The notes beneath the pieces are model-generated. The model made no database searches. It was not told the DNA's origin and was given only the letters and a program-made list of their open reading frames with translations. A DNA stretch of 64,000 nucleotides from an uncultured delta proteobacterium (lineage in GTDB: Bacteria; Myxococcota_A; Polyangia; Polyangiales; Houyiibacteriaceae), in the NCBI GenBank assembly GCA_963699755.1, contig CAVOVB010000001.1, positions 288,001 to 352,000 of the forward strand, given 5' to 3'. The position numbers and the translations under genes were made by a program. Shown here in pieces: positions 38,432 through 54,580 of this stretch; the first letter of the stretch is position 1; each line of letters begins with the position of its first letter.

Positions 38432-40957
38432 CTAAAACTTCACGGTGGCCAAGACCTGGAAGTAGATCGGCCAGCCCGGAGTGAAATGGAGGTCCTCGCA
38501 ACCAGCAAAGGTGCCGTCCGGCTCGATGACGGCGCGGGTTCCAGTCGGGCAATCTGCGGGAATGTCTTCGCCCAGAAGACGTCCCGTGGTCGCAAACTGC
38601 GCTTGGCGCCACTTGGTGTTCAGAAGATTGAGCAGCTGCGCCTGCACGCCGAAGCGCCGGTTCTCCCAGCCAAAGGAGGCGTCGACCCGCAGAAACCCTT
38701 CGGCAGTCAGAAAGCGGTCTTCGGTGGCAGGCCGGTCGGCGATGTAAAAGAAGCCAAGGCGTCCCGAAAGCCCCGTGCGCGGATCGCGAGCCGTCAAGCC
38801 CCCGCTGAGCAGGACCTCTGGGGCGAGTGCAATGGCATTGGCGTTGCCTGGATTGTTTACGAACTCCGCCCGGACCCAGGTCGCATCGAGGTCCGCGAGC
38901 AACCAAGGCACGATCTCGAGACGGAACTGGGCTTCGAGCCCGAGTCGACGAGTTTGCCCGCTTGCTTCGGTGGTGCCCTCGTCGCCCACCCAGACTACCT
39001 CGCTGTCGAGGTCCAGCCAGAAGAAGGCCGTCGAAAGCTGCAGCCGATTCCATGCGATCACCCGTGCACCCAGCTCCCAACCGAGCGCTGCGGCGACTGG
39101 GGTCGCCGGATCGGCGCCCAGAACGACCCCGCGCGCATCGTTCGAGTGAAACCCGCGCCCGAAGTTGACGAAGAGCTCTAGCGGTTCGACTGGCTGCACG
39201 ATCAGGCTGGCTTTGGGTAAAAGGATCGCTTGGACCCGTTCGCCGCTGCTTTTGGTGCCTAGCGTGCTCCGGTCCTCGAGTTGGTCCGTCACGTTGAAGA
39301 CGAAGTAGTCGAAACGAAGCCCACCGACGAGCCGCAGCCATCTCCAATCGAGCTCTTCCTCTCCGAAGACCCCTATGTTTCCCTCGCCGATGTTGGCGTC
39401 CACGCGTGTTGAAGCGATCTCGCGTGCAGGCGCATCCTGCAGTGTGTTGTCGATGGCATCGAAGCGAAAGTTGGCGCCCATCCGCGACTTCAGCGTCACC
39501 CTGTCGAATCGATGGGTGAATCCGTACTTGGCCCGTAGGCCCAGGGCAGTGCGCTTGTCGCCTTGGCGGATCATGTCGCCGCTGACCGGATCGTTCGCAA
39601 AGTAGGTGAAGTTGGAATACAGTGCGAAGCGCGAGTGGATGAGCCACCCCACGAGGCTCAGCCCTTCGCCTCCGGTCGAGCGCTGCCCATGTGTTCCCGG
39701 CTTCGCAGGTGAGTCGAGGTTGAGGTATAGGCTGTATCGCTGGCTCTGCCCGCCCTCGTTCGGGTCGATGCTGCCAAAGCGGTCGAGACTACCGGCGCGT
39801 ACTGCTCGCAGCGGAATCTGTCCCGATGCGTTCCAGTCGTTGAGGTAGGCGGTGCCGGTGAGCGCTAGCTTTGTCTTGCCACGAAGGTCGAAGGTGGTTC
39901 GGGCGAAGATATTCGTGCGCAGCAAGCCCTCGGGATTCTCGAACGGTCCATCGGTGCCGAATACCTCGATGGCAAGGAGGGGCTTCACCGCATCGAGCTT
40001 GGGACTGATGATTCCGACGCCTCGAAAGCTCCGATACATGCCACCCCCGACGCTGAGGGAGCTGGTGGGCTCTTGGTTCTCGAGGACGAGATTGATCGCG
40101 CCAGCCGTCGCGAAGTCGCCGTATTCGCCATAGTATGGGCCTTTACGGACCTCCATCCGTTGGATCAACTCGGGGATGACGAAATGAAGGTCGGTGTATC
40201 CCTGGCCGTGTCCGTGACTGACCCAGTTGATCGGAACGCCGTCGACGTAGAATGCGACGTCCGTGCCGTGATCGCCGTCGAAGCCGCGAAGGAAGTACTG
40301 GTTGGCTTTGCCACCTCCGGCGTGCTGAATGGAGAAGAAGCCGGGGGCCGCGTTGAGAAGATCACCGCTCGAAATATATGGGCGGAGACGCAACTCCTGC
40401 CCCGTGAGATCGATCGAGGACGCGGAAATGTCGGACGGAGCCACGACTGCAGTCGCGCTGAAGCCCGTCTCGGGAGCGACATCTCCGGTGGCGGTCGTCT
40501 CGGGCTCCTCCTCGCTCTGGGTTGGCGCTGCATGAGGCTCTGCGGGCTCCCCCTCACCTAGTTGGTGTGGAGGATCGAACAAGACCTCGAACCGAACGAT
40601 GGCGGGTACGGGGATCCCATCACGTTTCGCTGGCTCGAAAGCCAAGTCGAGCACATACCGTTGTGCCAACTCGGAGAACTGCGCGGCTTGCTCCCCTTCT
40701 CGATCGACCGAAAGCACGTGCACCTCTTCGACCCGCCCCTCCGGGTCGATGCTGATCTGCAACAGCACATGGGCCGGCTTGCCGTCAGCGTCGGGCGGGT
40801 AGGACGGATGCAGCTGTGCGTCCGAACGGAGCGAGGGCGCTTCGAGCAGGGGTGAATCGGAGGGTGCCTGCGCGGCTTCTTCTTCCTGGGCGAATGCTGA
40901 ACCATGCACTGCCAGGCAAGCCGCAAGGGCGACCATGAGCTTTGAGAGTTCACGCAT
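38432..40957 (-). CDS. TonB-dependent receptor with N-terminal TonB C-terminal domain
   Basis: signal peptide; YPPDA..IDPEGRV..FEPAKRDG; plug QHAGGGKANQYFLRGFDGDHG, HGHGQGY; terminal Phe (TVKF). Confidence 0.92.
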   Translation of the reverse strand: MRELSKLMVALAACLAVHGSAFAQEEEAAQAPSDSPLLEAPSLRSDAQLHPSYPPDADGKPAHVLLQISIDPEGRVEEVHVLSVDREGEQAAQFSELAQRYVLDLAFEPAKRDGIPVPAIVRFEVLFDPPHQLGEGEPAEPHAAPTQSEEEPETTATGDVAPETGFSATAVVAPSDISASSIDLTGQELRLRPYISSGDLLNAAPGFFSIQHAGGGKANQYFLRGFDGDHGTDVAFYVDGVPINWVSHGHGQGYTDLHFVIPELIQRMEVRKGPYYGEYGDFATAGAINLVLENQEPTSSLSVGGGMYRSFRGVGIISPKLDAVKPLLAIEVFGTDGPFENPEGLLRTNIFARTTFDLRGKTKLALTGTAYLNDWNASGQIPLRAVRAGSLDRFGSIDPNEGGQSQRYSLYLNLDSPAKPGTHGQRSTGGEGLSLVGWLIHSRFALYSNFTYFANDPVSGDMIRQGDKRTALGLRAKYGFTHRFDRVTLKSRMGANFRFDAIDNTLQDAPAREIASTRVDANIGEGNIGVFGEEELDWRWLRLVGGLRFDYFVFNVTDQLEDRSTLGTKSSGERVQAILLPKASLIVQPVEPLELFVNFGRGFHSNDARGVVLGADPATPVAAALGWELGARVIAWNRLQLSTAFFWLDLDSEVVWVGDEGTTEASGQTRRLGLEAQFRLEIVPWLLADLDATWVRAEFVNNPGNANAIALAPEVLLSGGLTARDPRTGLSGRLGFFYIADRPATEDRFLTAEGFLRVDASFGWENRRFGVQAQLLNLLNTKWRQAQFATTGRLLGEDIPADCPTGTRAVIEPDGTFAGCEDLHFTPGWPIYFQVLATVKF

Positions 40958-41031
40958 GACGAATCGCCGAATCCACGGGACCCCAGAGGCCCCGCGACCC
41001 AAGTGAAAGGTTCGACTTCGAGGAGAACCCT

Positions 41032-41451
41032 TTAGGTGGGCGGTGCGCGCGCTCGCGTGTTCTCGGGTTGACAGTCGGCGGGCTGCTCGTCGTGTGTCAG
41101 AGGCGGCGGATCGGTCCAGCTTAGAAGCGCCTCTTGTACATCCGGAAGAGACGGAACCGGAACGTTCGCAGCAAGCTGCCCGTGCGCGATGCTCCCTTTG
41201 CCGTGATCGGACGGCGACTCGTGCTCGTCCTCGTCACCTTCGTGATGGTGAGCGTCCGCTCGCTCGTGGTCGTGGTCCCGAGGATGCTCGTGAGCGCTAC
41301 GATTTTCGTGTGCCCCATGATGGTGCGCACCGAACGCGCCATGAAATGCGACGTGTACCGTCGGCAGCAGCACGAAGCCAGCCAGCCACAGAAGGGACGC
41401 GAGCGCGGCGCCAAAGCTCTGATGACGGTTTCCGGAATGCCGAAAGGTCAC
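41032..41451 (-). CDS. His-rich DUF2946-like leader protein ending in a RAPP motif
   Basis: N-terminal TM segment, His/Asp/Glu-rich tract, C-terminal RARAPPT*. Confidence 0.75.
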   Translation of the reverse strand: MTFRHSGNRHQSFGAALASLLWLAGFVLLPTVHVAFHGAFGAHHHGAHENRSAHEHPRDHDHERADAHHHEGDEDEHESPSDHGKGSIAHGQLAANVPVPSLPDVQEALLSWTDPPPLTHDEQPADCQPENTRARAPPT

Positions 41452-41906: not shown

Positions 41907-42431
41907 TCAAGTCATCCATTGAAGCGATGATGCAATGATGTCGCGGGCGCTCTGTCGGAAAACAGGTCCGTGCGCGAGGATCAGTTGCTCGGGGTTCCAA
42001 TCGAGGATGGTTTGGAGCGCTGCGCGAGCGGTCTTCCGATCGATGAAAGTGGCTCGCCACTCGCGCGGAGTGCTTCCATCGGAACCGAGCAACCCGTCGA
42101 GCTTCATGAGCCGTCGCTTCCAGCGGGAGAACGCGTTGGGATCGTGATTCTGGATCAGGTCACATACGAGTGCAGTTTTCGATGGGCGATGAAAGAACAC
42201 GGCTTCGTCCATTGCGAAGCTTCCGCCCACCATCACGAATTCGATCGCGCCTTGCCAACGTGGCCGGGGCTCTCCACGGAGCTCGGCAAAGAACGGCAGG
42301 TCAGGGCGCTTCTCCTTCAACCCAGGCGCTCCGCGGAGTTGGGCCGATGGATAATGCGCGACCCAGTCGCCGAAAAACGAGACCGTCGGCCCGTCCAGGA
42401 TCCAAAGCCCTTCTCCAAGGGTTTGCAGCAT
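41907..42431 (-). pseudogene. DUF4336 family protein with apparent internal deletion
   Basis: EAVFFHRPSKT..DLIQN..ILAHG present; GPTVSFFG is joined directly to DWVAHYP. Confidence 0.65.
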
Positions 42432-42706: not shown

Positions 42707-45700
42707 ATGAAGGCCGCGGGTGCGATGCCGGTGTCTCGGGTCGAGCCGCTGCATGCGGTTGTTTCGGGCCGTCTGCGCGTTCGCGTTCGCGGACTCTATC
42801 GCTCCAGGCATCTCGCGTCCCGGATCGAGCAATCGTTGCGTTCGCACCCATCGATTCGGCGCGTGCGAGCGAGCGCACGCACCGGCAACGTTCTGGTGCT
42901 CTTCGACGATAGTCTGAGCTCCATCGACGTTCATCGGATGCTCGACTCCGCGCTCGACACAGCGGCGACCGAGGTGGTCTCACTGCGCAGGCGGCCTAGC
43001 CGTCTAGCCTCCGATTCCGGTTTCGCCCTCCTGTTCGCCGAGGCATGGCGGCGAGCCAGAGGTTTCCGGGACCGCGCAAACAACGACGACAACCGAGTGA
43101 TTCATGTCGCGTTCCCCCAAAACGATCTCCGTTGGTACTTGCGCACGGTCGATGAAGTCATCGAGTCATTCGAGAGCTCGAGCACGAACGGGCTTGCGGC
43201 AGAGAAATTGCCTGAGTTGCTCTCCCGCTACGGTCCCAATGCGTTGCCTCGGGCCGAGCCGCGAAGCGCGCTTTCGCTCATCGGTGCTCAGCTCAAGAGC
43301 CTCCCGGTCGCGCTGCTCGGAGTGTCCGCGGTCGTCTCGGTCCTCACGGGGGGCGTGCTCGAGGCAGGGGTCATTGGTGCCGTGGTCGTGACCAACGCCC
43401 TCATCGGATTCGCGACCGAATCTCAGATCGAGAGAAGCATTCGATCGCTATCGACGGTCACGGCGACGAAGGCTCGCGTGATTCGGGATGGGCAGGCGCT
43501 CGAAGTTGCCGCTGAAGAGATCGTTCCCGGCGACATGCTCGTGCTCGGCCGAGGTACTCGGATCGTGGCGGATGCTCGAATCGTGGAGACCTCGAGACTG
43601 GACGTGGACGAATCTGCGTTGACGGGAGAGAGCATCCCCGTGACGAAACAGTCGGCACCGCTGGAAAAAGAAACGGTGCCACTCGCCGACAGAACGAACA
43701 TCGTCTACAGAGGAACCTCAGTCACGGGCGGCAGCGGTCTCGCGGTCGTCGTTGCAACTGGTTCCGGTACGGAGCTCGGCCGCATTCAAGAGTTGGTCAG
43801 CCACGCAGGGCCACCGGAAACTCCGTCGCAACGCGAGCTCAGAGTGCTCGGCAATCAACTCGTTTGGGCGGGCGCCTCGGTCTGCGGCGCGATGTTCGGA
43901 ATCGGCATGCTTCGCGGCTACGGGTGGATGCAAATGGCACGCTCGTCGATCTCTTTGGCGGTCGCGGCTCTGCCCGAAGGTCTTCCAACGGTGGCGATGA
44001 CGGTTCTGTCTCTCGGAGTGCGCGATCTCCGCAAGCGCGACGCTCTGGTCCGTCATCTAGACGCCGTCGAGACGCTAGGGGCGCCCCAGATCATCTGCTT
44101 GGACAAGACCGGAACGATTACGCAGAACCGGATGTCCGTCGTATCGGCGCTCGCCGATGGCTGCCGGCAAGACTTCAGTGCCGATGACCTCGGCCGCGCC
44201 GAGGCTGCGCCGGCGTCGCTCGACAGCCCCGCTTTTCGCCGCATGCTCGAAGTCGCCGCGCTTTGCAACGAGGTCGCGCTCGAGAAGTCGGACAGAGGCT
44301 GGCGCCTCCATGGCTCGCCGACCGAGCGCGCGCTTATGGAGCTGACGCTCGCTCACGGCATCGACGTCGAGGTGCTGCGGGCGACGTATCCGATGGTGGA
44401 TCTGCAACTGCGTGCGGACGACCGAAACTACATGGTCTCGACCCACTCGCTCGGCGAAGGCAAGTCATTCTTCGCTGTGAAGGGCAGCCCGGATCAGGTC
44501 CTGTCACTCTGCGACCGGATCTATGATCAGGCTGTGGTGCGACCCCTCGACGAATCGGATCATGCCAAGGTCGAAGCCGAGAACGGCCAGATGGCGGGGC
44601 GGGCCTTGCGCGTTCTAGGGGTAGCGTACGGGGAGCACCCTGATTCCCTCGGAAACCCAGATCGCTACGTCTGGCTCGGCCTCCTAGGCATGACCGATCC
44701 GCCGCGCATAGGGGTGAAAGCGCTCATCGAAGAGTTTCACCACGCAGGGATCGACACTGTCATGATCACTGGAGATCAGAGCGCCACCGCCTATGCGATC
44801 GCAAAGGAGCTCAATCTCGGTCGCGACGGATTGCTCGAGATCCTCGACTCCACCCACATGGAGGAGGTCCCCCCAGAGGTGCTCAGCTCCTTGGCTCAAC
44901 GCGTCCAGGTGTTCTCGCGGGTGAGCCCAGCACACAAGTTGGAGATCGTCCAAGCGCTTCAACGGGCGGGGAAAGTCGTCGCAATGACTGGGGACGGCAT
45001 CAACGACGGCCCGGCGCTGCGAGCGGCGGATGTAGGCATTGCAATGGGCGCCACCGGGTCGGAAGTTGCGCGTGAGGTTGCCGACGTCGTGCTCGAGAGG
45101 GACGACCTAGAATCCCTGATCGAGGCGATCAGGCAGGGTCGAACGATCCACGACAACATCCGCAAGTCTGTGCACTTCTTGCTCTCGAGCAACACGAGCG
45201 AAATCCTCACGATGATGGGCTCGATCAGCGCCGGCCTTGGCGAGCCACTGACGCCGATCCAACTCCTCTGGCTCAACCTGATCACCGACATCTTCCCCGG
45301 CCTTGGGCTCGCCGTCGAACCGTCCGAACCCGATGTCATGGAGCGCCCTCCCCGGGGCTCTGACGACCCGCTCTTGCGTAGTGCCGACTTCGTCCGCATC
45401 CTCACCGAGGGCGCGCTGCTCGCGGGCGGCACTCTCGGCGGCTACGCTTGGGCGCTTCGCCGGTACGGCGCCGGACCGAAGCCAGCTTCCATCGCCTTCA
45501 TGACCCTCACGATCGCCCAGCTCCTACACGCCCTATCGTGTCGGTCCGAACACCGAAGCATTTTCGACCGGGAGCTGGGCCCGATGAACCTTCCACTCAA
45601 ATTGGGGGTCGGTGGCTCGCTCGCGCTCCAGCTGCTCGCTGGGGCGGTCCCCGGCTTGGGCCCGATCCTCGGACTCGGTCGCCTGCGCGCCCCTGACTGG

Positions 45701-45841
45701 CTGGCAATCGCCCTCGGAGCGGGCTTACCTCTGCTGACCAATGAGGCGCTCAAGAAGGGCGGATTGTGGAAACGCGAGTTTCACCCGGCATCGTTCGGAA
45801 CCGGAACCGTTGGCTCATCGCAGAGGAGCGTGCATCCATGA
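42707..45841 (+). CDS. P2A-type (Ca2+-like) cation-transporting P-type ATPase with N-terminal HMA2 domain
   Basis: HAVVSGRLRVR..TGNVLVLF; TGES; ALPEGL; DKTGT; KGSP; TGD; GDGIND; SSNTSE; LWLNLITD. Confidence 0.92.
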   Translation: MKAAGAMPVSRVEPLHAVVSGRLRVRVRGLYRSRHLASRIEQSLRSHPSIRRVRASARTGNVLVLFDDSLSSIDVHRMLDSALDTAATEVVSLRRRPSRLASDSGFALLFAEAWRRARGFRDRANNDDNRVIHVAFPQNDLRWYLRTVDEVIESFESSSTNGLAAEKLPELLSRYGPNALPRAEPRSALSLIGAQLKSLPVALLGVSAVVSVLTGGVLEAGVIGAVVVTNALIGFATESQIERSIRSLSTVTATKARVIRDGQALEVAAEEIVPGDMLVLGRGTRIVADARIVETSRLDVDESALTGESIPVTKQSAPLEKETVPLADRTNIVYRGTSVTGGSGLAVVVATGSGTELGRIQELVSHAGPPETPSQRELRVLGNQLVWAGASVCGAMFGIGMLRGYGWMQMARSSISLAVAALPEGLPTVAMTVLSLGVRDLRKRDALVRHLDAVETLGAPQIICLDKTGTITQNRMSVVSALADGCRQDFSADDLGRAEAAPASLDSPAFRRMLEVAALCNEVALEKSDRGWRLHGSPTERALMELTLAHGIDVEVLRATYPMVDLQLRADDRNYMVSTHSLGEGKSFFAVKGSPDQVLSLCDRIYDQAVVRPLDESDHAKVEAENGQMAGRALRVLGVAYGEHPDSLGNPDRYVWLGLLGMTDPPRIGVKALIEEFHHAGIDTVMITGDQSATAYAIAKELNLGRDGLLEILDSTHMEEVPPEVLSSLAQRVQVFSRVSPAHKLEIVQALQRAGKVVAMTGDGINDGPALRAADVGIAMGATGSEVAREVADVVLERDDLESLIEAIRQGRTIHDNIRKSVHFLLSSNTSEILTMMGSISAGLGEPLTPIQLLWLNLITDIFPGLGLAVEPSEPDVMERPPRGSDDPLLRSADFVRILTEGALLAGGTLGGYAWALRRYGAGPKPASIAFMTLTIAQLLHALSCRSEHRSIFDRELGPMNLPLKLGVGGSLALQLLAGAVPGLGPILGLGRLRAPDWLAIALGAGLPLLTNEALKKGGLWKREFHPASFGTGTVGSSQRSVHP

Positions 45842-47022
45842 CTCGAGACTTCCTGTTTACTTCCGAATCAGTGACCGAAGGTCACCCCGACAAGCTCTGT
45901 GATCAGATCAGCGATGCGATCGTGGACCGCTACCTTCAGCAAGATCCCTTCTCCACTCTGGTCGCCGAAACCGCGCTATCGAAAGGGATCGTGTTCATCG
46001 CATCGCACTTCTGCTCGAAAGGCACGGTCGACATCCCGGGGCTGGCGCGCGAGGTGATTCGGGACATCGGCTACGACGACGAAAGCTTCAACGCACGAAG
46101 CTGTAGCGTCATGACCAGCCTCAACGAGATGCCATCGCGCGCGGAGCCAACACCAGATGAGCGTGAGCTCGACGACGAAGCCATCGAGCGCATTGCCGTG
46201 ACCGAGCACGCAACGGTATTCGGATTCGCGTGCAAGCAGACCCCGGAGCTCATGCCGCTGCCGATCGTGGTCGCGCACGACTTGGCGAAGCGGCTTGCCG
46301 AAGCGAGACGCAAGGGTTCGACTTCGTACCTCAACCCGGATGGAAAGACCCAGGTCGGAATCGAGTACCTCGACAACCGACCACATCGAATTCACTCGAT
46401 CACGCTGGTGGCGAGTCAGAAGAAGGATGCCCCGAGCCTTTCCCGGTTGCGTGACGACCTGATGGAGCAAGTGATTAGGCCCGCATTCACGGGAAAAGAG
46501 CTTCGTCCGGATGCGGATACCACCATTTCCATCAACCCAGAGGGCGCGGTCATCTTGGGCGGTCCGACGCTTCACTCGGGCTCGACTGGTAGAAAAGTGG
46601 GGGTCGACACCTGGGGCGAGTATGCACGAAATAGCGGCTCGGCGATGTCTGGCAAAGATCCAACTCGAATCGACCGCATTGGAGTGTATGCGGCGCGACA
46701 CGCTGCGAAGAATGTCGTCGCGGCCGGTCTCGCAGATGAATGCGAGGTCCAGCTGAGCTACTCCATCGGATTGTCGCGCCCGGTCACTGTCCGGGCACGA
46801 ACGTTTGGCACTGGACGGATTTCGAATGCCGAGATCAGCAAGCGGATCGATGCCAATTTCGATCTTCGCCCAGGAGGGATTATTCGTGATTTCGAGCTGC
46901 GCTGGCTTCCGATTCAGCGCAAGCAGGACTTCTATCGGCGCTTGGCTAGTTACGGACAGGTGGGACGGCCGGAGCTCGACCTGCCCTGGGAGCGGACCAA
47001 CGCGGTGGCGCGGCTTTCCTAG
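45838..47022 (+). CDS. divergent methionine adenosyltransferase (MetK) paralogue
   Basis: FTSESVTEGHPDK, PDGK, TGRK, SGKD retained; GAGDQG and several substrate residues replaced; ATGA overlap with the ATPase. Confidence 0.88.
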   Translation: MTRDFLFTSESVTEGHPDKLCDQISDAIVDRYLQQDPFSTLVAETALSKGIVFIASHFCSKGTVDIPGLAREVIRDIGYDDESFNARSCSVMTSLNEMPSRAEPTPDERELDDEAIERIAVTEHATVFGFACKQTPELMPLPIVVAHDLAKRLAEARRKGSTSYLNPDGKTQVGIEYLDNRPHRIHSITLVASQKKDAPSLSRLRDDLMEQVIRPAFTGKELRPDADTTISINPEGAVILGGPTLHSGSTGRKVGVDTWGEYARNSGSAMSGKDPTRIDRIGVYAARHAAKNVVAAGLADECEVQLSYSIGLSRPVTVRARTFGTGRISNAEISKRIDANFDLRPGGIIRDFELRWLPIQRKQDFYRRLASYGQVGRPELDLPWERTNAVARLS

Positions 47023-47549
47023 GACTTGCCATCGCCGTCTTGTTCGTCGCCGTCTCGGTGCTGCCGGAGCAGACGCATCGCCTCTCCGAGCAAGGTGGGC
47101 CCCGACGGAAGGATCGAGCCTCGAAGGGCCTGGAGGACCGCCAACATGAACAAACCGGTGGCGGCCCGCTGAGGATTCTGGTCCATCCGGGCCCAGAGAA
47201 CTTCGGCGTCGAATCTGTCTAGCCGGTCGAGCCAATGGACGATGGTCTGCCTGGTGTCTTTCGGGGTTTCGCATCGAAACAGGCCAGCGGCTTCGGCGTG
47301 CTTCAAGAGCTCGGAGCAATCGCCGCGATGGAGGACCAGGATGCTGCCGGTGTTCGGATTCGTGGCAACCTCGAGCACCGAAACATGCTGCTCCAAAACC
47401 TGCTTCACCCCTTCGAAATAGGCCTCATCGCCGCGGCGCTCAGAACAGCGGACCCGAAAGCGACCAGTGCTTTGATGGCACAGGGCGGCCGTCGCCCTTG
47501 GTGGCGCCTCAGCTCGCTTGGCTTCGGTCTCTGGCGTCTTGCGTGGCAT
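47019..47549 (-). CDS. HMA2-domain membrane protein (FezC-like)
   Basis: HQSTGRFRVR..VATNPNTGSILVLH plus C-terminal hydrophobic LFMLAVLQALRGSILPSGPTLL. Confidence 0.75.
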   Translation of the reverse strand: MPRKTPETEAKRAEAPPRATAALCHQSTGRFRVRCSERRGDEAYFEGVKQVLEQHVSVLEVATNPNTGSILVLHRGDCSELLKHAEAAGLFRCETPKDTRQTIVHWLDRLDRFDAEVLWARMDQNPQRAATGLFMLAVLQALRGSILPSGPTLLGEAMRLLRQHRDGDEQDGDGKS

Positions 47550-47796
47550 CGCTCATCCCGGCTTCTTCAGCCATCTCGGCACTCACTTCCGCCATCAAGT
47601 CCTCCATGTCCTCGCGGAGCTCGGCGAGCTTTTCGACGCCGCCTTCGACGGCCCGCATCGTTCGCTTCAGGCTGGCTTTGACGAGGTCTCGCCGACGGCT
47701 GTCCGTCTGAGGGAGGAACATGGGAAGCAGTGAAGCCGCGGCAGCGCCAAGTGCAAATCCGATCGCCACGTCCCGAATCGAGATTGATTTTGCCAT
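47509..47796 (-). CDS. DUF5132/FezA-like small membrane protein
   Basis: AAGGAGG RBS; AIGFALGAAAA (GxxxG) TM segment; amphipathic LVKASLK..LAELREDMEDLMAEVSAE. Confidence 0.75.
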   Translation of the reverse strand: MAKSISIRDVAIGFALGAAAASLLPMFLPQTDSRRRDLVKASLKRTMRAVEGGVEKLAELREDMEDLMAEVSAEMAEEAGMSDATQDARDRSQAS

Positions 47797-47985: not shown

Positions 47986-50900
47986 TCAGTCCGAGCGGTC
48001 CAAGCTCGCTTCGCTTGCTGTCTGGTACCCAGGATCTCCTGGACTCTGGCGGGAAACGGCAGAGCGGGGATTTGCGGCACGATGTAGCAGGTACGGTGTG
48101 ATGGCCGCCGCCAGGAGAGACGCACCGGAAGGCGCGAGGACCTCATGGTGGCGCCCGGCAAGCCACTCGATACGGACCCCGTCTCGAACCAAGCGACCCC
48201 AGCCCAAGTCGGGTTCGTGTGGGCCTTCAAACGGATCGAGCTCCGTCCGGAAAAGCACGAGCTTCGCGGGGATCGTCTTCGGGCGATACTGCATGATCAA
48301 ATCGAGCTGGGCCTGCATGGAACTGAGATCGTCTTTCGAAAAATCCACCTGGGCGTGTCGAAAAAGCCCGCCGATGTCGTGGCGGTAGTGTCGTCCGAAC
48401 CAGCGAGCCGGAGCGCGGAGCGCGGCCTCGAGAACGCGCCCGGCCGACGCTTCGATCGAGCCTCTGTTTTCGCCAATCTCCCTCAGTCGCGCGGCCGTCG
48501 TCCGAGCCAAACGCCAAAGCCGCTTCGGACTCGTAAAGGGCGATGGAACGGGAATCGATGCAGGGGGCGTACCGTCCAATACCGCGAAGAAATCAACTTC
48601 GTGGCCGATCTCGAGGAGCTGCTCGGCGATGGCGAGAGCAACGATACCACCGGTCGAATACCCGGCAAGAGCATGAGGGCCTTCGGGCTGCGCCTTGAGA
48701 ATCAACTTGGCGTAGGTTTGCGCCATCGTATTAAGGCTGTCGCCCGCAACTTCGACATCGGTCAGACCCGGGGTCCGAAACCCATAGACTGGAATCATCG
48801 AGTCGAGGGCTTCGGCGAGATGGACGTAGTCCAGCGCAAGGCCGGTCACTCCAGGGGCGAGGAAAAGCGGCCGGACTGCTGGGTCTCCGGGCGCGAGCTG
48901 GACGATCGGCTCCTGACGCTCGACTTCGATGCCTTGACGGACCAACCGCGCAAGACCTTCCAAGGTGGGGTCGCGGAAGAACGCCTGCGCGTCGCATGAA
49001 CGGTTCAAGCGGCTCTCCACTTCGTTGAACAGCTGGACCACCAGTAGCGAATGTCCCCCAGCCTGGAAAAAGTTGATCGATGCGTCTGAGATCGGCTTCC
49101 CTAGCAGTCCAGTCCAGATCTCGGCGAGCTCCGTTTGGATCGGCTCATTCGGTGGGGCTGAGAGCTGGTCACCGAGCTGCGCGTCCTCGCTGAGGCGCGC
49201 GGCGGATAGGGCTTCGCGGTCAATCTTGCCAGCAGGAGTCTGCGGCAGCTCGTCAAGCGTCAGGATCCTCTTGGGGACCATGTGGCTTGGCAGCGCCCTC
49301 GAAAGACATTCGCGAATTCGGGGCAGGTCGACGAGATTGCGATCGCCGACGACGAAGCCGATGAGTGCTGCGTCTCCACCTCGATCTCTTCGTACCACGA
49401 CTGCGGCTTCGCTTACACCCGGGCATGACAACAGGTGTGCTTCCACTTCGCCGAGCTCTATACGAAAACCTCGCACCTTGACCTGCTGATCGACACGATC
49501 GACGTAAACATAGTTCCCGGCACTGGTCTGTCTCACGAGATCTCCGGTCGCGTACAAACGAGCGCCCTCGCGCCATGGGTGAGGGACGAAACGCTCGGCG
49601 GTCTTCTCCTTCTGCCCGAGATAACCGAGCGCGAGGGTGCAGCCCCCGATGTAGAGTTGTCCCACGACCCCTTGCGGAACCGGACGCATGTGATGGTCCA
49701 AGACGAAGTGGGAGACACCGCGGTGTGGACGTCCGATCGGCATCGCTGGATCCGGATCGCTTTGTCGATCATCATAGAAGGTGGACGTGATGGTGGTCTC
49801 AGTTGGACCATACGCGTTGATCCAGCGAATCCAATCGGTCCGAGCTTCACGAAAACGTTCATGGGCCTCGACAGAGGCCTGCTCTCCACCGACCACCAGC
49901 AAGCGAACGCACCGCGGCCAAGTCGCCTGCGCGCGGCTGTCCGTCAGCTTGTGCCAAAACGCGGTGGGCAGATTCAGGACCGTGAGCCGGTGTTGCTCCG
50001 CCGCGGCGAAGAAGCTCCGGCTCGTCTGCGCAAGCTCCCGATTTCGTAATACCAGCGTTGCGCCAGCGCAAAGCGTCGGAAAGATCTCTTCCAAGGAGAC
50101 ATCGAAGCTCAGCGCAGCAAACTGCAGAACGCGGTCCTTCGGAGTGAGTCGAAACACATCGACCGTCGTCATCGCATGATGGCTCAGAGCGCCATGGGTC
50201 AAACAGACCCCTTTTGGTATTCCCGTCGAACCTGATGTGTAGACGACGTAGGCGAGCGAGTCCGGGGCAACGGCCGGCGGGGCCGAGCTCGGGGGAGGCA
50301 CCTCCGGACTGAGCTGCTCGAGATCGACCACCGTCGCGCTGGTCCTCGGCATGCTCGAGCTCGCTCCGTTGACGAGAATGAACCTCGCTTTCGAATCATC
50401 GAGCATGAATGCGATCCGCTCGGGCGGATAGTCAGGATCGGCCAGCATGAAGGCCGCGTGCAGGTAGTGAGCTGCCAGCATGGCGACGACGGCCTCGATC
50501 GAGCGCGGGAGCAGCAAGGCCAGAAGGTCACCCTCCCTCACACCGCGCGCCTGGAGCGCGTGGGCCGTCGAGCGTATTCGCGATGCGAGCTCCGCATACG
50601 TCATCGAGCGACCATCCATCGCTTCGATCGCCGTGTGCGCTCCTCGAGCGTGCGCCTGATCGAGAATCCGCTGAAGCGCACTGATCTCCGGTGGTTCTTG
50701 CTCACGCTCGGCTTCTGCGGCGGTCAGTCTTTCATAGACCCCGCGGTCCAGCACTCGGAGGTCATGAAGCTGTGCGTCGGGATTGCATGCTACTTCAGAC
50801 AGCAAGCTCACGTAGTGCCGCAGGATTTGCTCGGCCTCGGCGGCAGAATACAGACCTGAATCGCGCTCGAGTTGCACGATGAGTGCCCCGGCCTCCATGA

Positions 50901-52074
50901 ACGTATAGAGGCAGAGCGGGTAGTTGGTGTGCGACCGTGACCAAACCTTGCGCGTCTTCCAGCGCTCGCTCAAGTCGCTGAGCCTGCCAGACAGACGCCC
51001 CGGTTCGAAGACGGTAAGGGTGCGGAACAATTCCTTCTTGCTGGATGCGCCAGTGGCAGCCTTGATCTGGTGAAGCGGGGTTTGCTGAAACGGGCGTCCC
51101 TCCAGGTGCTGTTGCCGGAGCGATCTCAGGGCTTCTTTGATCGATGGATCCCCGCTGAGATCCAATCGGATGGGAACGGTCGCGATGAAGAGTCCGACGG
51201 TTTGCTTCGCGCCTTCGATCGTCCCCGTTCGTCCCGACCAGGTGGTACCAAAGACGACGTCGTCTCGGCCCGCGTAGCGGGAAAGCAAGACGCCCCAAAC
51301 GAGCTGAGTCACCGTATTCAGACTGGCGCCGCATTCGTCTGCAAGTTTTTTCAAGCCCCGGCTCGTGGGGACATCGAGGCGTCGACGGTGTTCGACAACG
51401 TGCGAATCTCGAGATGCAATACGACTGTCGTTGCGAAGAGGGAGCTCGGTCGGCTCGGAGAATCCCTCCAAAAGGCGACGGAAGTGCTCCACGCCGGCCT
51501 GGGTATCCCGTTCGGCCGCCCATCGGATGAAATCAAAGTACGACGGCGCCGGACCGACAGGCTGAAGGTCGCCCTGATACGTCGAAAGCACGTACTCTAG
51601 CACCGAGGCGTAGGATCCACCGTCGATGAGGCAGTGGCGGACGGTCCATACGAAGCACCAGCGCGTATCGGACAACCTGAACACCGAAACTCGCATCAGC
51701 GGAGCGCGAAATAGATCGATACCTTCGCTCCGATCGCGATCAAAGAAGCTCGCAAGCATTTCGCGCTGCTCGGCTTCGGAGTGCTTTGTCCAGTCTTCGA
51801 GTCTGAATGGCAGGTCGACGCGCGGGCAAACCCTAACCAGCGGCTCATCGGGCTTGGGCCACTCGAACTCCAGGCGCAGCGCATCGAAGCGGTCGAGGGC
51901 GCTCTGCCATGCCGCTCGAAATCGCTCCGGATCGAGAGGATCCTCCAACTCGCAGACGACCTGCTCGATGTTGACCATACGCCCGCGAGCCAGGAGGCTT
52001 TCCGCCAGCATCCCCCTCTGCATCGGGGTGACCCTCAGGGCGACGGGCCGGTCGTGCTTCAATGCTCGCCCCAT
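47986..52074 (-). CDS. stand-alone monomodular NRPS (C-A-T-TE)
   Basis: C: TPMQRGML, RHCLIDG; A: YTSGSTGIPKG, NAYGPTE, LYATGD, QVKVRGFRIELGE; T: FFQAGGHSL; TE: GYSTG. Confidence 0.93.
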   Translation of the reverse strand: MGRALKHDRPVALRVTPMQRGMLAESLLARGRMVNIEQVVCELEDPLDPERFRAAWQSALDRFDALRLEFEWPKPDEPLVRVCPRVDLPFRLEDWTKHSEAEQREMLASFFDRDRSEGIDLFRAPLMRVSVFRLSDTRWCFVWTVRHCLIDGGSYASVLEYVLSTYQGDLQPVGPAPSYFDFIRWAAERDTQAGVEHFRRLLEGFSEPTELPLRNDSRIASRDSHVVEHRRRLDVPTSRGLKKLADECGASLNTVTQLVWGVLLSRYAGRDDVVFGTTWSGRTGTIEGAKQTVGLFIATVPIRLDLSGDPSIKEALRSLRQQHLEGRPFQQTPLHQIKAATGASSKKELFRTLTVFEPGRLSGRLSDLSERWKTRKVWSRSHTNYPLCLYTFMEAGALIVQLERDSGLYSAAEAEQILRHYVSLLSEVACNPDAQLHDLRVLDRGVYERLTAAEAEREQEPPEISALQRILDQAHARGAHTAIEAMDGRSMTYAELASRIRSTAHALQARGVREGDLLALLLPRSIEAVVAMLAAHYLHAAFMLADPDYPPERIAFMLDDSKARFILVNGASSSMPRTSATVVDLEQLSPEVPPPSSAPPAVAPDSLAYVVYTSGSTGIPKGVCLTHGALSHHAMTTVDVFRLTPKDRVLQFAALSFDVSLEEIFPTLCAGATLVLRNRELAQTSRSFFAAAEQHRLTVLNLPTAFWHKLTDSRAQATWPRCVRLLVVGGEQASVEAHERFREARTDWIRWINAYGPTETTITSTFYDDRQSDPDPAMPIGRPHRGVSHFVLDHHMRPVPQGVVGQLYIGGCTLALGYLGQKEKTAERFVPHPWREGARLYATGDLVRQTSAGNYVYVDRVDQQVKVRGFRIELGEVEAHLLSCPGVSEAAVVVRRDRGGDAALIGFVVGDRNLVDLPRIRECLSRALPSHMVPKRILTLDELPQTPAGKIDREALSAARLSEDAQLGDQLSAPPNEPIQTELAEIWTGLLGKPISDASINFFQAGGHSLLVVQLFNEVESRLNRSCDAQAFFRDPTLEGLARLVRQGIEVERQEPIVQLAPGDPAVRPLFLAPGVTGLALDYVHLAEALDSMIPVYGFRTPGLTDVEVAGDSLNTMAQTYAKLILKAQPEGPHALAGYSTGGIVALAIAEQLLEIGHEVDFFAVLDGTPPASIPVPSPFTSPKRLWRLARTTAARLREIGENRGSIEASAGRVLEAALRAPARWFGRHYRHDIGGLFRHAQVDFSKDDLSSMQAQLDLIMQYRPKTIPAKLVLFRTELDPFEGPHEPDLGWGRLVRDGVRIEWLAGRHHEVLAPSGASLLAAAITPYLLHRAANPRSAVSRQSPGDPGYQTASEASLDRSD

Positions 52075-52235
52075 CGCGGTCGAGTGTAGCCTCCAACGCT
52101 CAAAGGACCAGCTGAAACGGCGCCCACCGCCCTTAGTGTCATCGGGGCAAGATTGCCCGGGCACGCTCAGACGCAGGGCTAGTGTCCCTACAGTCGACGC
52201 GGGCACGGCATCTCAGATGGGTCGGGTTGTTGTGC

Positions 52236-54290
52236 TCAGATGCCATTGCCCGCGATCCCATCGCTCGCTTTGTAGTTCGTGACGGCCGCGTGCCGGAAGA
52301 AGTACTGGGTGGGAGATGGCGACCAGTTTGAGCTCCCAACCATGCCGAGGTGCGCATTGAATCTCGGAAACCCGTCGCGCCAGGTTTCAATGCCGGTTTG
52401 TTCCAGTGCCAGCACGCCATTGATGTAAACCCTCGAGAGGCCATCGGTTGCGCCTTGGCCCGATGACCGAACGTACTCGAGCTCCACTTCGACCCATTCA
52501 CCAAGAGGAACGGCGACAGTGCTGAGAACGCTGTCAGGCGTGGTGGAACCGAGCAACCGAAGCGCGGACCAATCTAAAAAGAGCTTCATCGTGCCCGCGC
52601 GATCGACCTCGAGGCTTGGCCAAAAATCCGCGAAGAGCGGGGCGCCCTCGTCCGTGGAAGGGGAAACGTCTAGGATCGACAGCCATGCCGAGCCGTCCCC
52701 GGTGAGCCTGTCCTCGAACAGGAACTCGGCGAACATGAAGATCGAGCCCTGATCCTCGAATTGCTTCTGTAGGTACGCATTGCGGTCGCGCCCGCCTCGA
52801 ATCAGTCGTCGCATGTCCGCGCTAGGTGCAACCGTTGCCTTCGAGTACCAGACCGGCTCTGTTCCCAACGGGTCGATTACCCTGTCGGTGGCCGGACCGG
52901 TCCAAATGTTGCAAGGGACGGGGGTTCCGATCGGCTGTTGGCAATAAGGGGATCCAGGGTACTGAGGCCGGCCCGACGGGGAGAAGTTGAAGCTTGGCGC
53001 GAAGAAGGCCCCGCTCTCGCTGCTCGCCCAAAAAACGAAGTCAGGCGGCGCTGCTCCAACGCCGGGGGCTAGGTCTTCCTCGTTCGCAGCGGTCCATCTC
53101 GTGTTGTCCCGAATCCAGTCTTCGAACGCCTCAACGCGCACCCAGGTTCCTTCAACACCCGGCGCACATTCACCGGAGCCCCGAGACGCAACGCCCGCAA
53201 TCCGGGGTTTGCCGTCAACGAACGCATAGAGCGGCCCGCCGGAGTCACCGCAACAAATGGATCCGCCTTCGATGAGGAAGCCACGAAATATTCTGTCTCC
53301 GAGCAGTGAGACGTATTGATTGCCTTCATACAACTCTTTGATCGGGCCAGCCCCGGCATTGTCGCCGTAACCGTGCGCGAGAAGCTCCGTGCACATCGGC
53401 GCCATCGAATCCGTATGCGGATAGGCGGCATAGGGCTCCGGCAGATCTACGCTCGTGTAAATCAGCATCAGGTCTGCGCCCGACTCTGATGTGCTTGCGG
53501 TTGGCGGATCGGCGGGTACCGGCCCCACGTCCGGGTGCAACCTGAAGCGATCGGACACGGCGATCACGGGCGCCGTGTCAAGTGGTTCCGTGTGGACATC
53601 GTGCCAATCGCTAGCCGGGTTCAGACAGTGCGCAGCGGTCAAGAGCGTGCGCGGGCTGATGATCGTTGCCGTGCACGAGCCGGAGGCGAGATTCATCCAC
53701 TCAACGCGGGCAGAGCTGATTCTATCCGATGCGATGGTGCATCCGCACATCCTGGGAACTGGACCACCTGCGGCGGGGTCCATCGCCCCCGCGCAGAAGA
53801 GGCCGGTGCCGGTCTGACCGCCGTCGCCTCCGATGCCACCTTCTCCGCCCTGGCCGCCTGTGCCGATCTGACCGCCGATTCCTCCAGTGCCACCTTCTCC
53901 GCCGTAGCCACCGGTGCCGGTCTGACCGCCGTCGCCTCCGATGCCACCTTCTCCGCCCTGGCCGCCTGTGCCGATCTGACCGCCGATTCCTCCAATGCCA
54001 CCTTCGCCGCCGTAGCCGCCGGTGCCGGTCTGACCGCCGTCGCCTCCAGTGCCACCTTCTCCGCCGTAGCCACCGGTGCCGGTCTGACCGCCGTCGCCTC
54101 CAGTGCCACCTTCTCCGCCCTGGCCGCTTATGCCACCCTCACCTCCGATGCCACCTCCGCCGCCGGTGCCGCCCTGACCGGCGATACCTCCGCTGCCGGC
54201 CGTTCCCCCGCTTCCACCGCTACCAGTGGTATCACCACACGCGACCAGGCCTAGCGCCAGCACGCACATCAATCCGCGCAAGTAACCCAT
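52236..54290 (-). CDS. lipoprotein with Gly linker, trypsin-like S1 protease and C-terminal beta-sandwich domain
   Basis: lipobox LVAC; TAAHC, ADLML, CGDSGGP; C-terminal GEWVEVEL..VYINGV (LamG/lyase-like). Confidence 0.88.
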   Translation of the reverse strand: MGYLRGLMCVLALGLVACGDTTGSGGSGGTAGSGGIAGQGGTGGGGGIGGEGGISGQGGEGGTGGDGGQTGTGGYGGEGGTGGDGGQTGTGGYGGEGGIGGIGGQIGTGGQGGEGGIGGDGGQTGTGGYGGEGGTGGIGGQIGTGGQGGEGGIGGDGGQTGTGLFCAGAMDPAAGGPVPRMCGCTIASDRISSARVEWMNLASGSCTATIISPRTLLTAAHCLNPASDWHDVHTEPLDTAPVIAVSDRFRLHPDVGPVPADPPTASTSESGADLMLIYTSVDLPEPYAAYPHTDSMAPMCTELLAHGYGDNAGAGPIKELYEGNQYVSLLGDRIFRGFLIEGGSICCGDSGGPLYAFVDGKPRIAGVASRGSGECAPGVEGTWVRVEAFEDWIRDNTRWTAANEEDLAPGVGAAPPDFVFWASSESGAFFAPSFNFSPSGRPQYPGSPYCQQPIGTPVPCNIWTGPATDRVIDPLGTEPVWYSKATVAPSADMRRLIRGGRDRNAYLQKQFEDQGSIFMFAEFLFEDRLTGDGSAWLSILDVSPSTDEGAPLFADFWPSLEVDRAGTMKLFLDWSALRLLGSTTPDSVLSTVAVPLGEWVEVELEYVRSSGQGATDGLSRVYINGVLALEQTGIETWRDGFPRFNAHLGMVGSSNWSPSPTQYFFRHAAVTNYKASDGIAGNGI
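53803..54126 (-). repeat. 54-bp tandem repeat x6 (GGEGG[T/I]GG[D/I]GGQ[T/I]GTGG[Y/Q])
   Basis: CTGACCGCCG recurs every 54 bp from 53814. Confidence 0.88.
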
Positions 54291-54580
54291 GAAGACCTTC
54301 CCGGGCGAAATCGCTCGCTCCAACCCTCGTCACATCAGTCAATTGGGGGTGCCAACGAGCGTGGGCAATACGTAATTGTTAACCAATGACTCATACGAGC
54401 TCTTTGCACCACGTGACCGCTCGAGAAAAGATCGCGCCAATCCTGCCCGCACGCGGCAGACCGCCGCCTCGAGCGCGGCTGATTCTCTATCAAAGCGTCG
54501 AGGCGATCGGCCCGAGCTCGGCGGCTAGCTGATCGAGCGGGCAGTCGGCTTGGGTGCAGGCATTCAATTTCACGGCGAGC

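Follow-up and report, generated by a model that had tools for sequence, protein, structure and literature searches.

Four closely spaced genes occupy positions 42707-47796 of the window, the whole 64,000-nucleotide stretch of DNA that was analyzed (Table 1). An ORF check of the window recovered all four where an earlier note on this DNA had placed them. The ATPase and MetK-like genes share an ATGA overlap (45838-45841), and the stops of the MetK-like gene and the gene for the 176-aa protein, which lie on opposite strands, overlap in CTAG at 47019-47022. This converging layout is the minority form: among 21 long loci, 16 are co-directional, two convergent and one divergent, and two lack the DUF5132 gene. 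Because the same convergent layout is found in loci L001, L002, L033 and L034, it is not an assembly artifact. Contigs from DNA sequencing runs cover the locus piecewise, and none of the listed pieces crosses the convergent junction.

Table 1. Genes and features of the locus, numbered by position in the window.
Feature	Position	Strand	Description
P2A-type (SERCA/SPCA-like) P-type ATPase with N-terminal CoBaHMA (HMA_2) domain	42707..45841	+	1044 aa; Pfam, NCBIfam, SERCA site residues, own clade
CoBaHMA head of pump	42752..42913	+	H16, GR22xR24xR, without CxxC; HMA_2 19.4 bits, under cut-off
MetK-fold paralogue	45838..47022	+	394 aa; MAT fold, residue comparison with E. coli MetK
CoBaHMA domain plus C-terminal hydrophobic helical hairpin (FezC-like architecture)	47019..47549	-	176 aa; HMA_2 orthologues, AlphaFold model, hydropathy
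DUF5132-like small membrane protein	47509..47796	-	95 aa; GxxxG TM segment plus amphipathic Glu/Ala-rich helix; related to FezA/DUF6110

The pump contains DKTGT, TGE and the M4-M6 ion-site residues of P2A ATPases. Its best model matches are P2A, and its scores against the PMR1- and SERCA-type equivalog models are under cut-off. The SERCA-like membrane motifs described previously (PEGL, SSNTSE and NLITD) held up as Ca/Mn-type transport residues against SERCA1a and SPCA1: N768, E771, N796, T799 and D800 of SERCA1a are retained, and the M4 PEGL aligns with that of SPCA1. At the sequence level, these P2A residues do not separate Ca from Mn. The Gln reported at the M8 Glu position is indeed there, with Q938 aligning with E908, but we rejected it as a marker of special ion selectivity, since Gln is also found in 7 of the 12 ordinary bacterial P2A pumps compared. 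The P1B-6 signature (D[Y/F]SCA plus HNxxT) is absent from the pump, and the two P1B pumps of the host genome are CPC-type. In the P-type subfamily phylogeny that the earlier note had called for, 20 cluster pumps form a P2A clade apart from 12 ordinary P2A pumps, with support of 100. A plasmid search placed one pump of this clade on a Microvirga plasmid, without MetK, and a scan of viral contigs with the pump N-terminus gave no relatives.

The HMA2 domain seen fused to the pump is an arginine-rich CoBaHMA head, as on FezB. It combines the HMA fold with the extra beta0 His and the basic patch, without CxxC, that define CoBaHMA (PF19991; PMC8890360), and its HMA_2 match is under threshold against a Pfam cut-off of 30. 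R22 and R24 are invariant in 31 pumps; RxR occurs in 31/31 heads and CxxC in 0/31. The motif count in alignment A5 is circular because its members were chosen with the H..GRxR pattern, while the invariants of alignment A7 and the Pfam matches are less so. CoBaHMA profiles also match the N-termini of four fezB-type pumps. The domain has been proposed to bind anionic lipids.

The MetK-like protein has the three-domain MAT fold (TM about 0.9) and reaches 375 bits against the TIGR01034 cut-off of 309. Its methionine-binding residues, whose roles are described in PMC3853416, are replaced: E55 by His, Q98 by Met, D238 by His (codon 46573-46575) and K269 by Arg (E. coli numbering). All four are present in 14/14 canonical MetK copies, whereas among 24 paralogues E55, D238 and K269 occur in none and Q98 in one. 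All 120 homologues compared have His at position D238. The catalytic His and the triphosphate/Mg/K residues, in contrast, are present in 24/24 paralogues at nine positions, with K165 in 23/24; H14, D163 and the triphosphate residues are invariant in the MetK-like paralogues. Here we take D16, K17, E42, K165, R244, K245, K265 and D271 to be the triphosphate/Mg/K-site residues of MetK.

These proteins form a clade of their own, apart from canonical MetK. A canonical metK is present elsewhere in the host genome, and 14 of 15 carrier genomes have a normal MetK alongside the paralogue. Source records name clade members methionine adenosyltransferase, but their residues suggest that the clade probably does something else. 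Close homologues exist in cultured Nostoc and Chlorogloeopsis; an ESM Atlas search with a MetK-like homologue returned MetK clusters only, and the plasmid search found no MetK-like paralogue (best identity 47%). The case for the MetK-like loop as an acidic docking patch for CoBaHMA is weak (mean net acidic 4.8 versus 3.9 in canonical copies). Pump and MetK distances correlate (rho 0.81, 31 loci), which we do not count as co-evolution because shared ancestry predicts such a correlation. Two features had escaped the first reading: the methionine pocket of the paralogue is, as judged from sequence, remodelled, and no other gene accompanies the pump as constantly.

The HMM searches proposed in the earlier note (DUF5132, HMA2) gave matches below threshold for the window's own small proteins and succeeded for their orthologues. 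The 95-aa protein matches DUF5132 at 20.3 bits (Pfam cut-off 25) and the 176-aa protein matches HMA_2 at 18.2 bits (cut-off 30). Because both matches are under threshold, family membership rests on orthologues, of which 35/36 match DUF5132 and 26/26 match HMA_2 at E<=0.01. Over 251 genomes of the host's own phylum, the Pfam DUF5132 model, which is too insensitive here, gave no match above cut-off.

GxxxG occurs in 33 of 36 members of the 95-aa family, and its assignment as FezA-type was borne out by comparison of the DUF5132 profile with four FezA-position genes (hhalign probability 94.5, E 7.9e-8), which were picked by their place beside fezB-type pumps, D. magneticus FezA itself not being the comparator. 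One FezA-position gene matches both DUF6110 and the DUF5132 profile built here. Since DUF1490 is related to DUF6110 (10.1101/2021.10.01.462712), the three families are linked; among the 36 members themselves there is no DUF1490 match. A natural DUF5132-hairpin fusion exists in the cyanobacteria-like loci L079 and L089.

For the 176-aa protein, AlphaFold predicts an HMA fold that superposes on the CzcP N-terminus (Z 8.5, rmsd 2.2, 63 aligned), and hydropathy peaks at 1.54 at residue 129. The FezC-type description given to this protein finds support in its HMA domain: against the CoBaHMA-plus-tail proteins of fez loci, a template of two sequences assigned by position, 64 HMA columns align and the membrane parts do not. 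A plasmid search for the HMA-hairpin protein gave no match.

A survey of gene neighborhoods, also suggested beforehand, found the four genes co-conserved across phyla. A CoBaHMA(HMA_2)-headed P2A pump lies directly upstream of a His-type MetK paralogue in 63 of 64 assessable metagenome loci. Both small genes are present in 17 of 21 long loci, the DUF5132 gene in 19 and an amphipathic, 22-mer-like repeat protein in 12. A separate search of 201 genomes with the DUF5132 profile found this P2A pump in 16/21 strong-match regions; the weak-match regions are true fez loci in 4/4 cases, with the match directly upstream of a DYSC/HNxxT pump. Loci L045 and L205 have no MetK-like gene nearby. Presence is patchy (3/55 genomes of the genus), and the free CoBaHMA and repeat proteins that larger copies include are absent from the host genome. 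By these comparisons, the four genes are one copy of a widespread conserved bacterial gene set that is apparently unstudied. Literature searches found no published description of the cluster in the texts they covered; 10.1002/prot.26668 (Gaschignard 2024), 10.1038/s41586-022-04741-x and the ferrosome-preprint supplements may list CoBaHMA-P2A pumps.

Pst genes occur in 8 of 96 cluster loci versus 0 of 26 ordinary-P2A loci, the loci being few and partly related. In the host genome, the pst genes lie about 600 kb from this copy. Calcium antiporter genes adjoin the copies L033 (GDT1) and L204 (two Ca/Na antiporters), and lipid genes lie beside others, mostly under cut-off: an ornithine-lipid acyltransferase-like gene in L072, and a diglucosyl-DAG synthase-like gene and a lipid kinase in L099. 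A loose two-half-site test for Pho boxes gave 9/43 (7.3 expected) upstream of DUF5132 genes and 8/41 (3.8 expected) upstream of pumps. Over the copies the signal is weak, with 12/65 regions at period 11 yet 10/65 at period 13. In the window, we found neither a Pho-like box nor a sigma-70-like promoter at this copy. Since other copies adjoin phosphate-starvation genes, phosphate handling appears to be indicated as much as cation storage; this phosphate neighborhood had gone unnoticed in the earlier note.

We tentatively read the four-gene core module as encoding a ferrosome-like body that might store calcium (or manganese) with phosphate, and we place this just short of even confidence. The GxxxG protein would form membrane oligomers that, together with the CoBaHMA-hairpin protein, cluster the pump and curve the membrane inward, while the basic patches of CoBaHMA would bind anionic lipid or partner proteins. 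The pump would transfer Ca2+/Mn2+ from cytoplasm to lumen. The MetK-like protein would no longer make SAM from methionine and would use its intact triphosphate site instead, either converting ATP or triphosphate to PPi and Pi or adenosylating an anionic acceptor, and so might supply or sense the phosphate counter-ion. In many carriers, the genes might be induced by phosphate starvation and the store formed at resupply, as ferrosomes are for iron. For storage we counted the 63/64 adjacency, the small genes in 17/21 loci, the 201-genome search, the DUF5132-hairpin fusion, the ccyA flanks, the MetK site, the Pst counts and the Ca antiporters. Counted against it were the plasma-membrane efflux role of the PacL1/CtpC small protein, the distant pst genes and missing Pho-like box here, the lack of free CoBaHMA/repeat proteins here, the weak Pho-box signal, the few and partly related Pst loci, L045/L205, the Ca/Mn ambiguity and the active archaeal MATs with swapped residues.

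The main rival, which we consider rather unlikely, is an efflux platform of the PacL/CtpC type. To our knowledge, the bacterial P2A pumps characterized so far are exporters. A PacL-like GxxxG scaffold or chaperone would stabilize and cluster the pump in plasma-membrane microdomains for Ca2+/Mn2+ export, with no organelle and with the MetK-like protein as a regulator or nucleotide sensor. PacL1, a TM segment plus a Glu/Ala-rich region, is required for CtpC efflux and co-clusters with CtpC in membrane microdomains (10.1101/2021.10.01.462712), and the FezA-position gene links DUF1490, DUF6110 and DUF5132. PacL/DUF1490 proteins scaffold mycobacterial plasma-membrane efflux clusters, with no vesicle reported (10.1101/2021.10.01.462712; PMC13043812), and for that reason the gene content here is not proof of a vesicle. 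However, export alone leaves unexplained the near-fixed MetK-like partner, the 22-mer-like repeat protein and the phosphate-gene neighborhood, and the pairing of a DUF1490 protein with a P1B6-like pump that marks an effluxosome is missing, the pump being P2A.

It is improbable that the locus serves membrane remodelling under phosphate starvation, with the MetK-like protein an active, divergent synthetase of SAM (or a SAM analogue) feeding phosphorus-free lipid synthesis and the pump and CoBaHMA proteins handling cations at the altered membrane. The TIGR01034 score, the invariant H14, D163 and triphosphate residues, the lipid genes beside L072 and L099 and the proposed lipid binding of CoBaHMA all favor it, as do archaeal MATs, which carry changes at E55, Q98 and K269 yet are still active. 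Those enzymes nevertheless keep D238 (PMC3853416), which is His throughout the homologues here; two acidic pocket residues have become basic, and canonical MetK coexists in nearly all carriers. That an ordinary Ca pump and a spare metK merely adjoin two unrelated small genes is scarcely credible. The converging layout and patchy presence would fit chance neighbors, but the adjacency and co-directional counts, the separate clades of pump and MetK-like protein and the gene fusion refute them.

What the module builds may be a body that stores calcium phosphate or a membrane platform on which pumps cluster. If the storage reading is true, bacterial calcium-phosphate inclusions gain a set of genes and the ferrosome concept reaches beyond iron. 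Compartment aside, a conserved MetK clade labelled methionine adenosyltransferase has a rebuilt substrate pocket and probably another function; what is new here, by residue comparison, is a paralogue that keeps the triphosphate-site residues while those that bind methionine are replaced. It is possible, with less assurance than for the storage body itself, that the locus encodes an undescribed organelle that stores calcium-(poly)phosphate within a membrane, with a FezA/CoBaHMA chassis round a P2A pump and a repurposed MetK-fold enzyme whose chemistry would be new (triphosphatase activity or transfer of adenosyl to an anion). Such an organelle would occur in Myxococcota, deltaproteobacterial lineages, Nitrospirota and Cyanobacteria. 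One modular chassis with exchangeable pumps would then be common to ferrosomes, effluxosomes and calcyanin loci.

Compared with E. coli MetK (1RG9/1P7L), the paralogue shares the fold, H14, D16, K17, E42, D163, K165, R244, K245, K265 and D271; E55, Q98, I102, D238, K269 and R229 are replaced, and both the gating loop and the GAGDQG motif have been rebuilt. The pump shares the site II residues, N768, E771 and T799 with the SERCA/SPCA1/LMCA1 P2A Ca2+-ATPases, and differs in having Gln for E908, the N-terminal CoBaHMA domain and dedicated accessory genes. Like PacL/CtpC effluxosomes, the locus encodes a small TM plus Glu/Ala-helix protein beside a P-type ATPase, related via DUF6110. Unlike them, it has a MetK-like partner, its small protein lacks a His-rich metal-binding tail, and its pump is not a P1B pump for zinc resistance, as CtpC is.

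The ferrosome-like locus around a P2A pump that the earlier note proposed survives in its conserved gene set, FezA relative and CoBaHMA head; a fez operon proper is ruled out for want of a P1B-6 pump, and the FezC membrane part is unmatched. Fez clusters (FezA, FezB P1B-6 ATPase, FezC, FezD; Grant and Komeili, 10.1101/2020.01.10.902569) likewise have a GxxxG small membrane protein, homologous at the FezA position, an R-rich (CoBaHMA) pump head and separate CoBaHMA proteins with and without membrane tails. Their pump is P1B-6 (DYSCA/HNxxT), whereas ours is P2A (PEGL/NxxE/NxxTD) with a nearly fixed MetK-like gene and a hairpin that does not align to the fez-locus membrane part. Neighbors of the P2A-pump clusters are phosphate and Ca/Mg genes, and fez loci L220 and L221, as read from sequence, have FeoA-like genes. 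The calcyanin locus for intracellular amorphous CaCO3 (10.1101/2024.07.07.602159; PMC8890360) differs in its transporter, a Ca/H exchanger, and its marker, the (GlyZip)3 calcyanin, which none of the four genes here encodes. In Microcystis forming Ca-carbonate, DUF5132 and CoBaHMA genes flank the calcyanin gene ccyA (10.1101/2024.07.07.602159), and the likeness to our locus lies in two DUF5132 and two CoBaHMA genes set beside a calcium transporter.

All four ORFs stand in the window as the earlier note gave them, with the ATGA overlap of pump and MetK-like genes and the CTAG overlap of the convergent stops. The assignment of the pump to the P2A type also holds: its top model matches are P2A, its structure matches are SPCA1 and LMCA1, and, relative to SERCA1a, residues N768, E771, N796, T799 and D800 of the ion site are kept, with Gln at the E908 position, as had been claimed. 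In a tree, the pumps of the cluster form a single clade apart from 12 ordinary P2A pumps (support 100). The family assignments of the small proteins hold for the orthologues, of which 26 of 26 match HMA_2 and 35 of 36 match DUF5132 (E≤0.01), but the window's own proteins score below the Pfam cut-offs. HMA_2 is PF19991, the CoBaHMA domain according to 10.1101/2024.07.07.602159. The same genome also carries a canonical metK and, among further P-type pumps, two of the ordinary P2A and two of the CPC-type P1B kind; none of the fezB type was found in it. The nearest named relatives come from Polyangiales and Myxococcales MAGs.

The module is accessory, since the 176-aa protein is present in 6 of 61 relatives and, of 55 genomes from the genus, 3 match the DUF5132 profile. 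Its convergent layout recurs at L001, L002, L033 and L034. Searching metagenomes with a DNA pattern based on the motif of His-type MetK (D238 replaced by His) gave at least 80 loci. Among the matches listed, the P2A pump lies immediately upstream at 63 of the 64 loci with at least 400 nt upstream, L094 being the sole exception; the 21 long loci hold DUF5132 in 19, both small genes in 17, a free CoBaHMA protein in 13 and an amphipathic repeat protein in 12, with the genes co-directional in 16. The gene-neighbourhood survey thus bears out the proposed co-occurrence. In a reverse search, the DUF5132 profile was matched in 21 of 201 genomes in the phylum of genome G301 (record labelled Deltaproteobacteria). 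The clade P2A pump is found in 16 of 21 regions around strong matches, and 14 of these 16 also have the MetK-like gene; the other two are L205, where it is absent, and L214, where the region is cut off. Two of the five regions lacking the pump stop at contig ends. Named sources of MetK-like homologues include Nostocales, Hydrococcus, Nitrospirota, Rhodospirillales and Myxococcota. The four-gene system is real and widespread, and the window's copy is a minimal, rearranged version without the accessory genes of larger copies. No account of the system was found in the literature searched, whose coverage of relevant papers is incomplete.

The MetK-like protein has a MAT fold (model pLDDT 88.8, TM about 0.9) and passes the TIGR01034 cut-off. 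E. coli residue numbers were transferred via the canonical MetK of the same genome. All of its best 120 homologues have His in place of D238, and 117 have Arg in place of K269; at the E55 position Arg or His predominates, and the Q98 position is hydrophobic. Canonical and paralogous MetK copies of the same genomes were also tested as pairs, with nine named homologues added (L228 and L249 left out). In this set, E55, Q98, I102, R229, D238 and K269 occur in 14 of 14 canonical copies, and His238 with Arg269 in 24 of 24 paralogues. Both sets invariably keep H14, D16, K17, E42, D163, R244, K245, K265 and D271, conserved residues that include the phosphate and metal ligands. The paralogues form a single clade in a quick tree (SH-aLRT 100), and canonical MetK is present in 14 of 15 carriers as well. 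According to PMC3853416, the methionine amino group is bound by D238 and E55 and the carboxyl group by Q98 and K269; archaeal MATs keep the D238 equivalent and swap the others. From these sequences we infer a live triphosphate site and a pocket shifted from zwitterion to anion binding, so the protein is probably not a methionine adenosyltransferase.

Two cyanobacteria-like loci, L079 and L089, encode MetK-like proteins with 81-85% identity to those of cyanobacteria. In both, DUF5132 and the HMA protein's C-terminal hairpin form a single fused protein within a three-gene operon, which suggests that the two small proteins work together. L045 (Microvirga sp. VF16 plasmid) and L205, the deepest branch of the pump clade, have DUF5132, CoBaHMA genes and a clade pump with no MetK-like gene nearby. 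The ~230-aa amphipathic repeat protein, a representative of which has no confident Pfam match, is a candidate coat or curvature protein. ParA-family ATPases adjoining the cluster could position an organelle. In a subgroup (L046, L066, L107, L111, L123 and others), genes near the MetK-like one encode a hydrophobic protein of 75 aa, an EcsC-family member and a protein rich in Lys and Ala. In the window, the TonB receptor and His-rich ORF, about 1.3-1.7 kb upstream of the pump, look like a Zn/Ni/Co uptake pair. The NRPS flank is occupied by other genes in relatives L001 and L002.

Coordinates of the cluster-associated and neighbouring features
Feature	Location	Strand	Remark
P2A pump	window 42707..45841	+	
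MetK-like	window 45838..47022	+	
176-aa HMA/CoBaHMA-hairpin protein	window 47019..47549	-	
95-aa DUF5132-like GxxxG protein	window 47509..47796	-	
TonB_C-fused TonB-dependent receptor	window 38432-41451	-	small His-rich ORF before it
DUF4336-like ORF	window 41907-42431	-	weak match; possibly truncated/frameshifted at 5' end
Stand-alone NRPS	window 47986-52206	-	directly upstream of DUF5132 gene; condensation, adenylation, carrier, thioesterase
Lipoprotein-like	window 52236-54323	-	long Gly-rich repeats, trypsin-like domain; C-terminus weakly polysaccharide-lyase-like
DUF5132-hairpin fusion	L079:11989-12504; L089:5617-6159		cyanobacteria-like copies
~230-aa Gly/Ala/Val amphipathic repeat protein	L072:3464-4141		16 similar ORFs; between HMA-hairpin gene and pump
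ParA-family ATPase	L204:6286-6912; L206:2439-3086		
CoBaHMA-headed P1B pump, CPC motif	L200:12890-14998; L208:7521-9776		second pump beside P2A cluster
CopA-like pair, near-identical	G000 C1:1862144-1864384; C7:135271-137511		L038, L039; separate contigs; listed assembly contamination 9%

PstS/PstB genes occur at 8 of 96 cluster loci (910 kb) versus none of 26 ordinary-P2A loci (344 kb), the loci not being independent. At 27 loci, 134 of the 148 neighbour ORFs, each at least 170 aa long, were scanned against NCBIfam; the best match was to Pst, PhnD, PhoB-like or PhoH in 9 of 27 loci, to Ca/Na antiporters at L204 and to an MgtE-like protein at L109. No Feo or Fur match reached E≤1e-45 among these 134 ORFs, whose length limit makes FeoA and Fur missable. 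L033 is flanked by two phosphoesterases and, at the opposite end, by a GDT1 antiporter. Of 65 upstream regions, 12 contain triple Pho-like half-sites spaced by 11 bp, and other spacings give 3 to 10; the signal is weak. The window's copy has no Pho-like box upstream and no pho genes nearby.

Each of the four weakest DUF5132-profile matches (24-28 bits) is followed directly by a pump carrying DYSC and HNxxT, which the ferrosome preprint (10.1101/2020.01.10.902569) gives as the P1B-6 signature. One of the four also matches DUF6110. Since these proteins align with the window's DUF5132-like family over 66 columns (profile-profile probability 94.5), the 95-aa protein is a genuine FezA relative, as the earlier note proposed. 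The 176-aa protein aligns with CoBaHMA-plus-tail proteins of these fez loci through its HMA domain but not beyond it. Judged by gene content, the cluster is not a ferrosome operon, because the defining FezB is missing, yet it is similarly built. The second, CPC-type P1B pump at L200 and L208 resembles FezH of large fez clusters.

The likeliest reading, which we hold tentatively, is that scaffold and adaptor would gather the pump into an inward-budding body, which the pump would fill with Ca2+ or Mn2+ while the MetK-like enzyme would serve the phosphate side. The comparisons establish co-conservation, homology and altered residues; compartment, ion, activity, binding and regulation are inferred. 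A lipid-remodelling module, with the MetK-like protein a divergent but still active synthetase, is improbable, and a chance grouping of the four genes, set beside their co-occurrence, is hardly credible. An efflux platform is a stronger rival, though the less probable reading. PacL1, related to the window's small protein via DUF6110, organises zinc-efflux microdomains with CtpC according to 10.1101/2021.10.01.462712 and PMC13043812, and the calcyanin locus of Microcystis has the same chassis parts (10.1101/2024.07.07.602159); the chassis alone therefore cannot separate storage from efflux. With its altered MetK-fold partner, the system is a new form of the chassis known from ferrosomes and effluxosomes.
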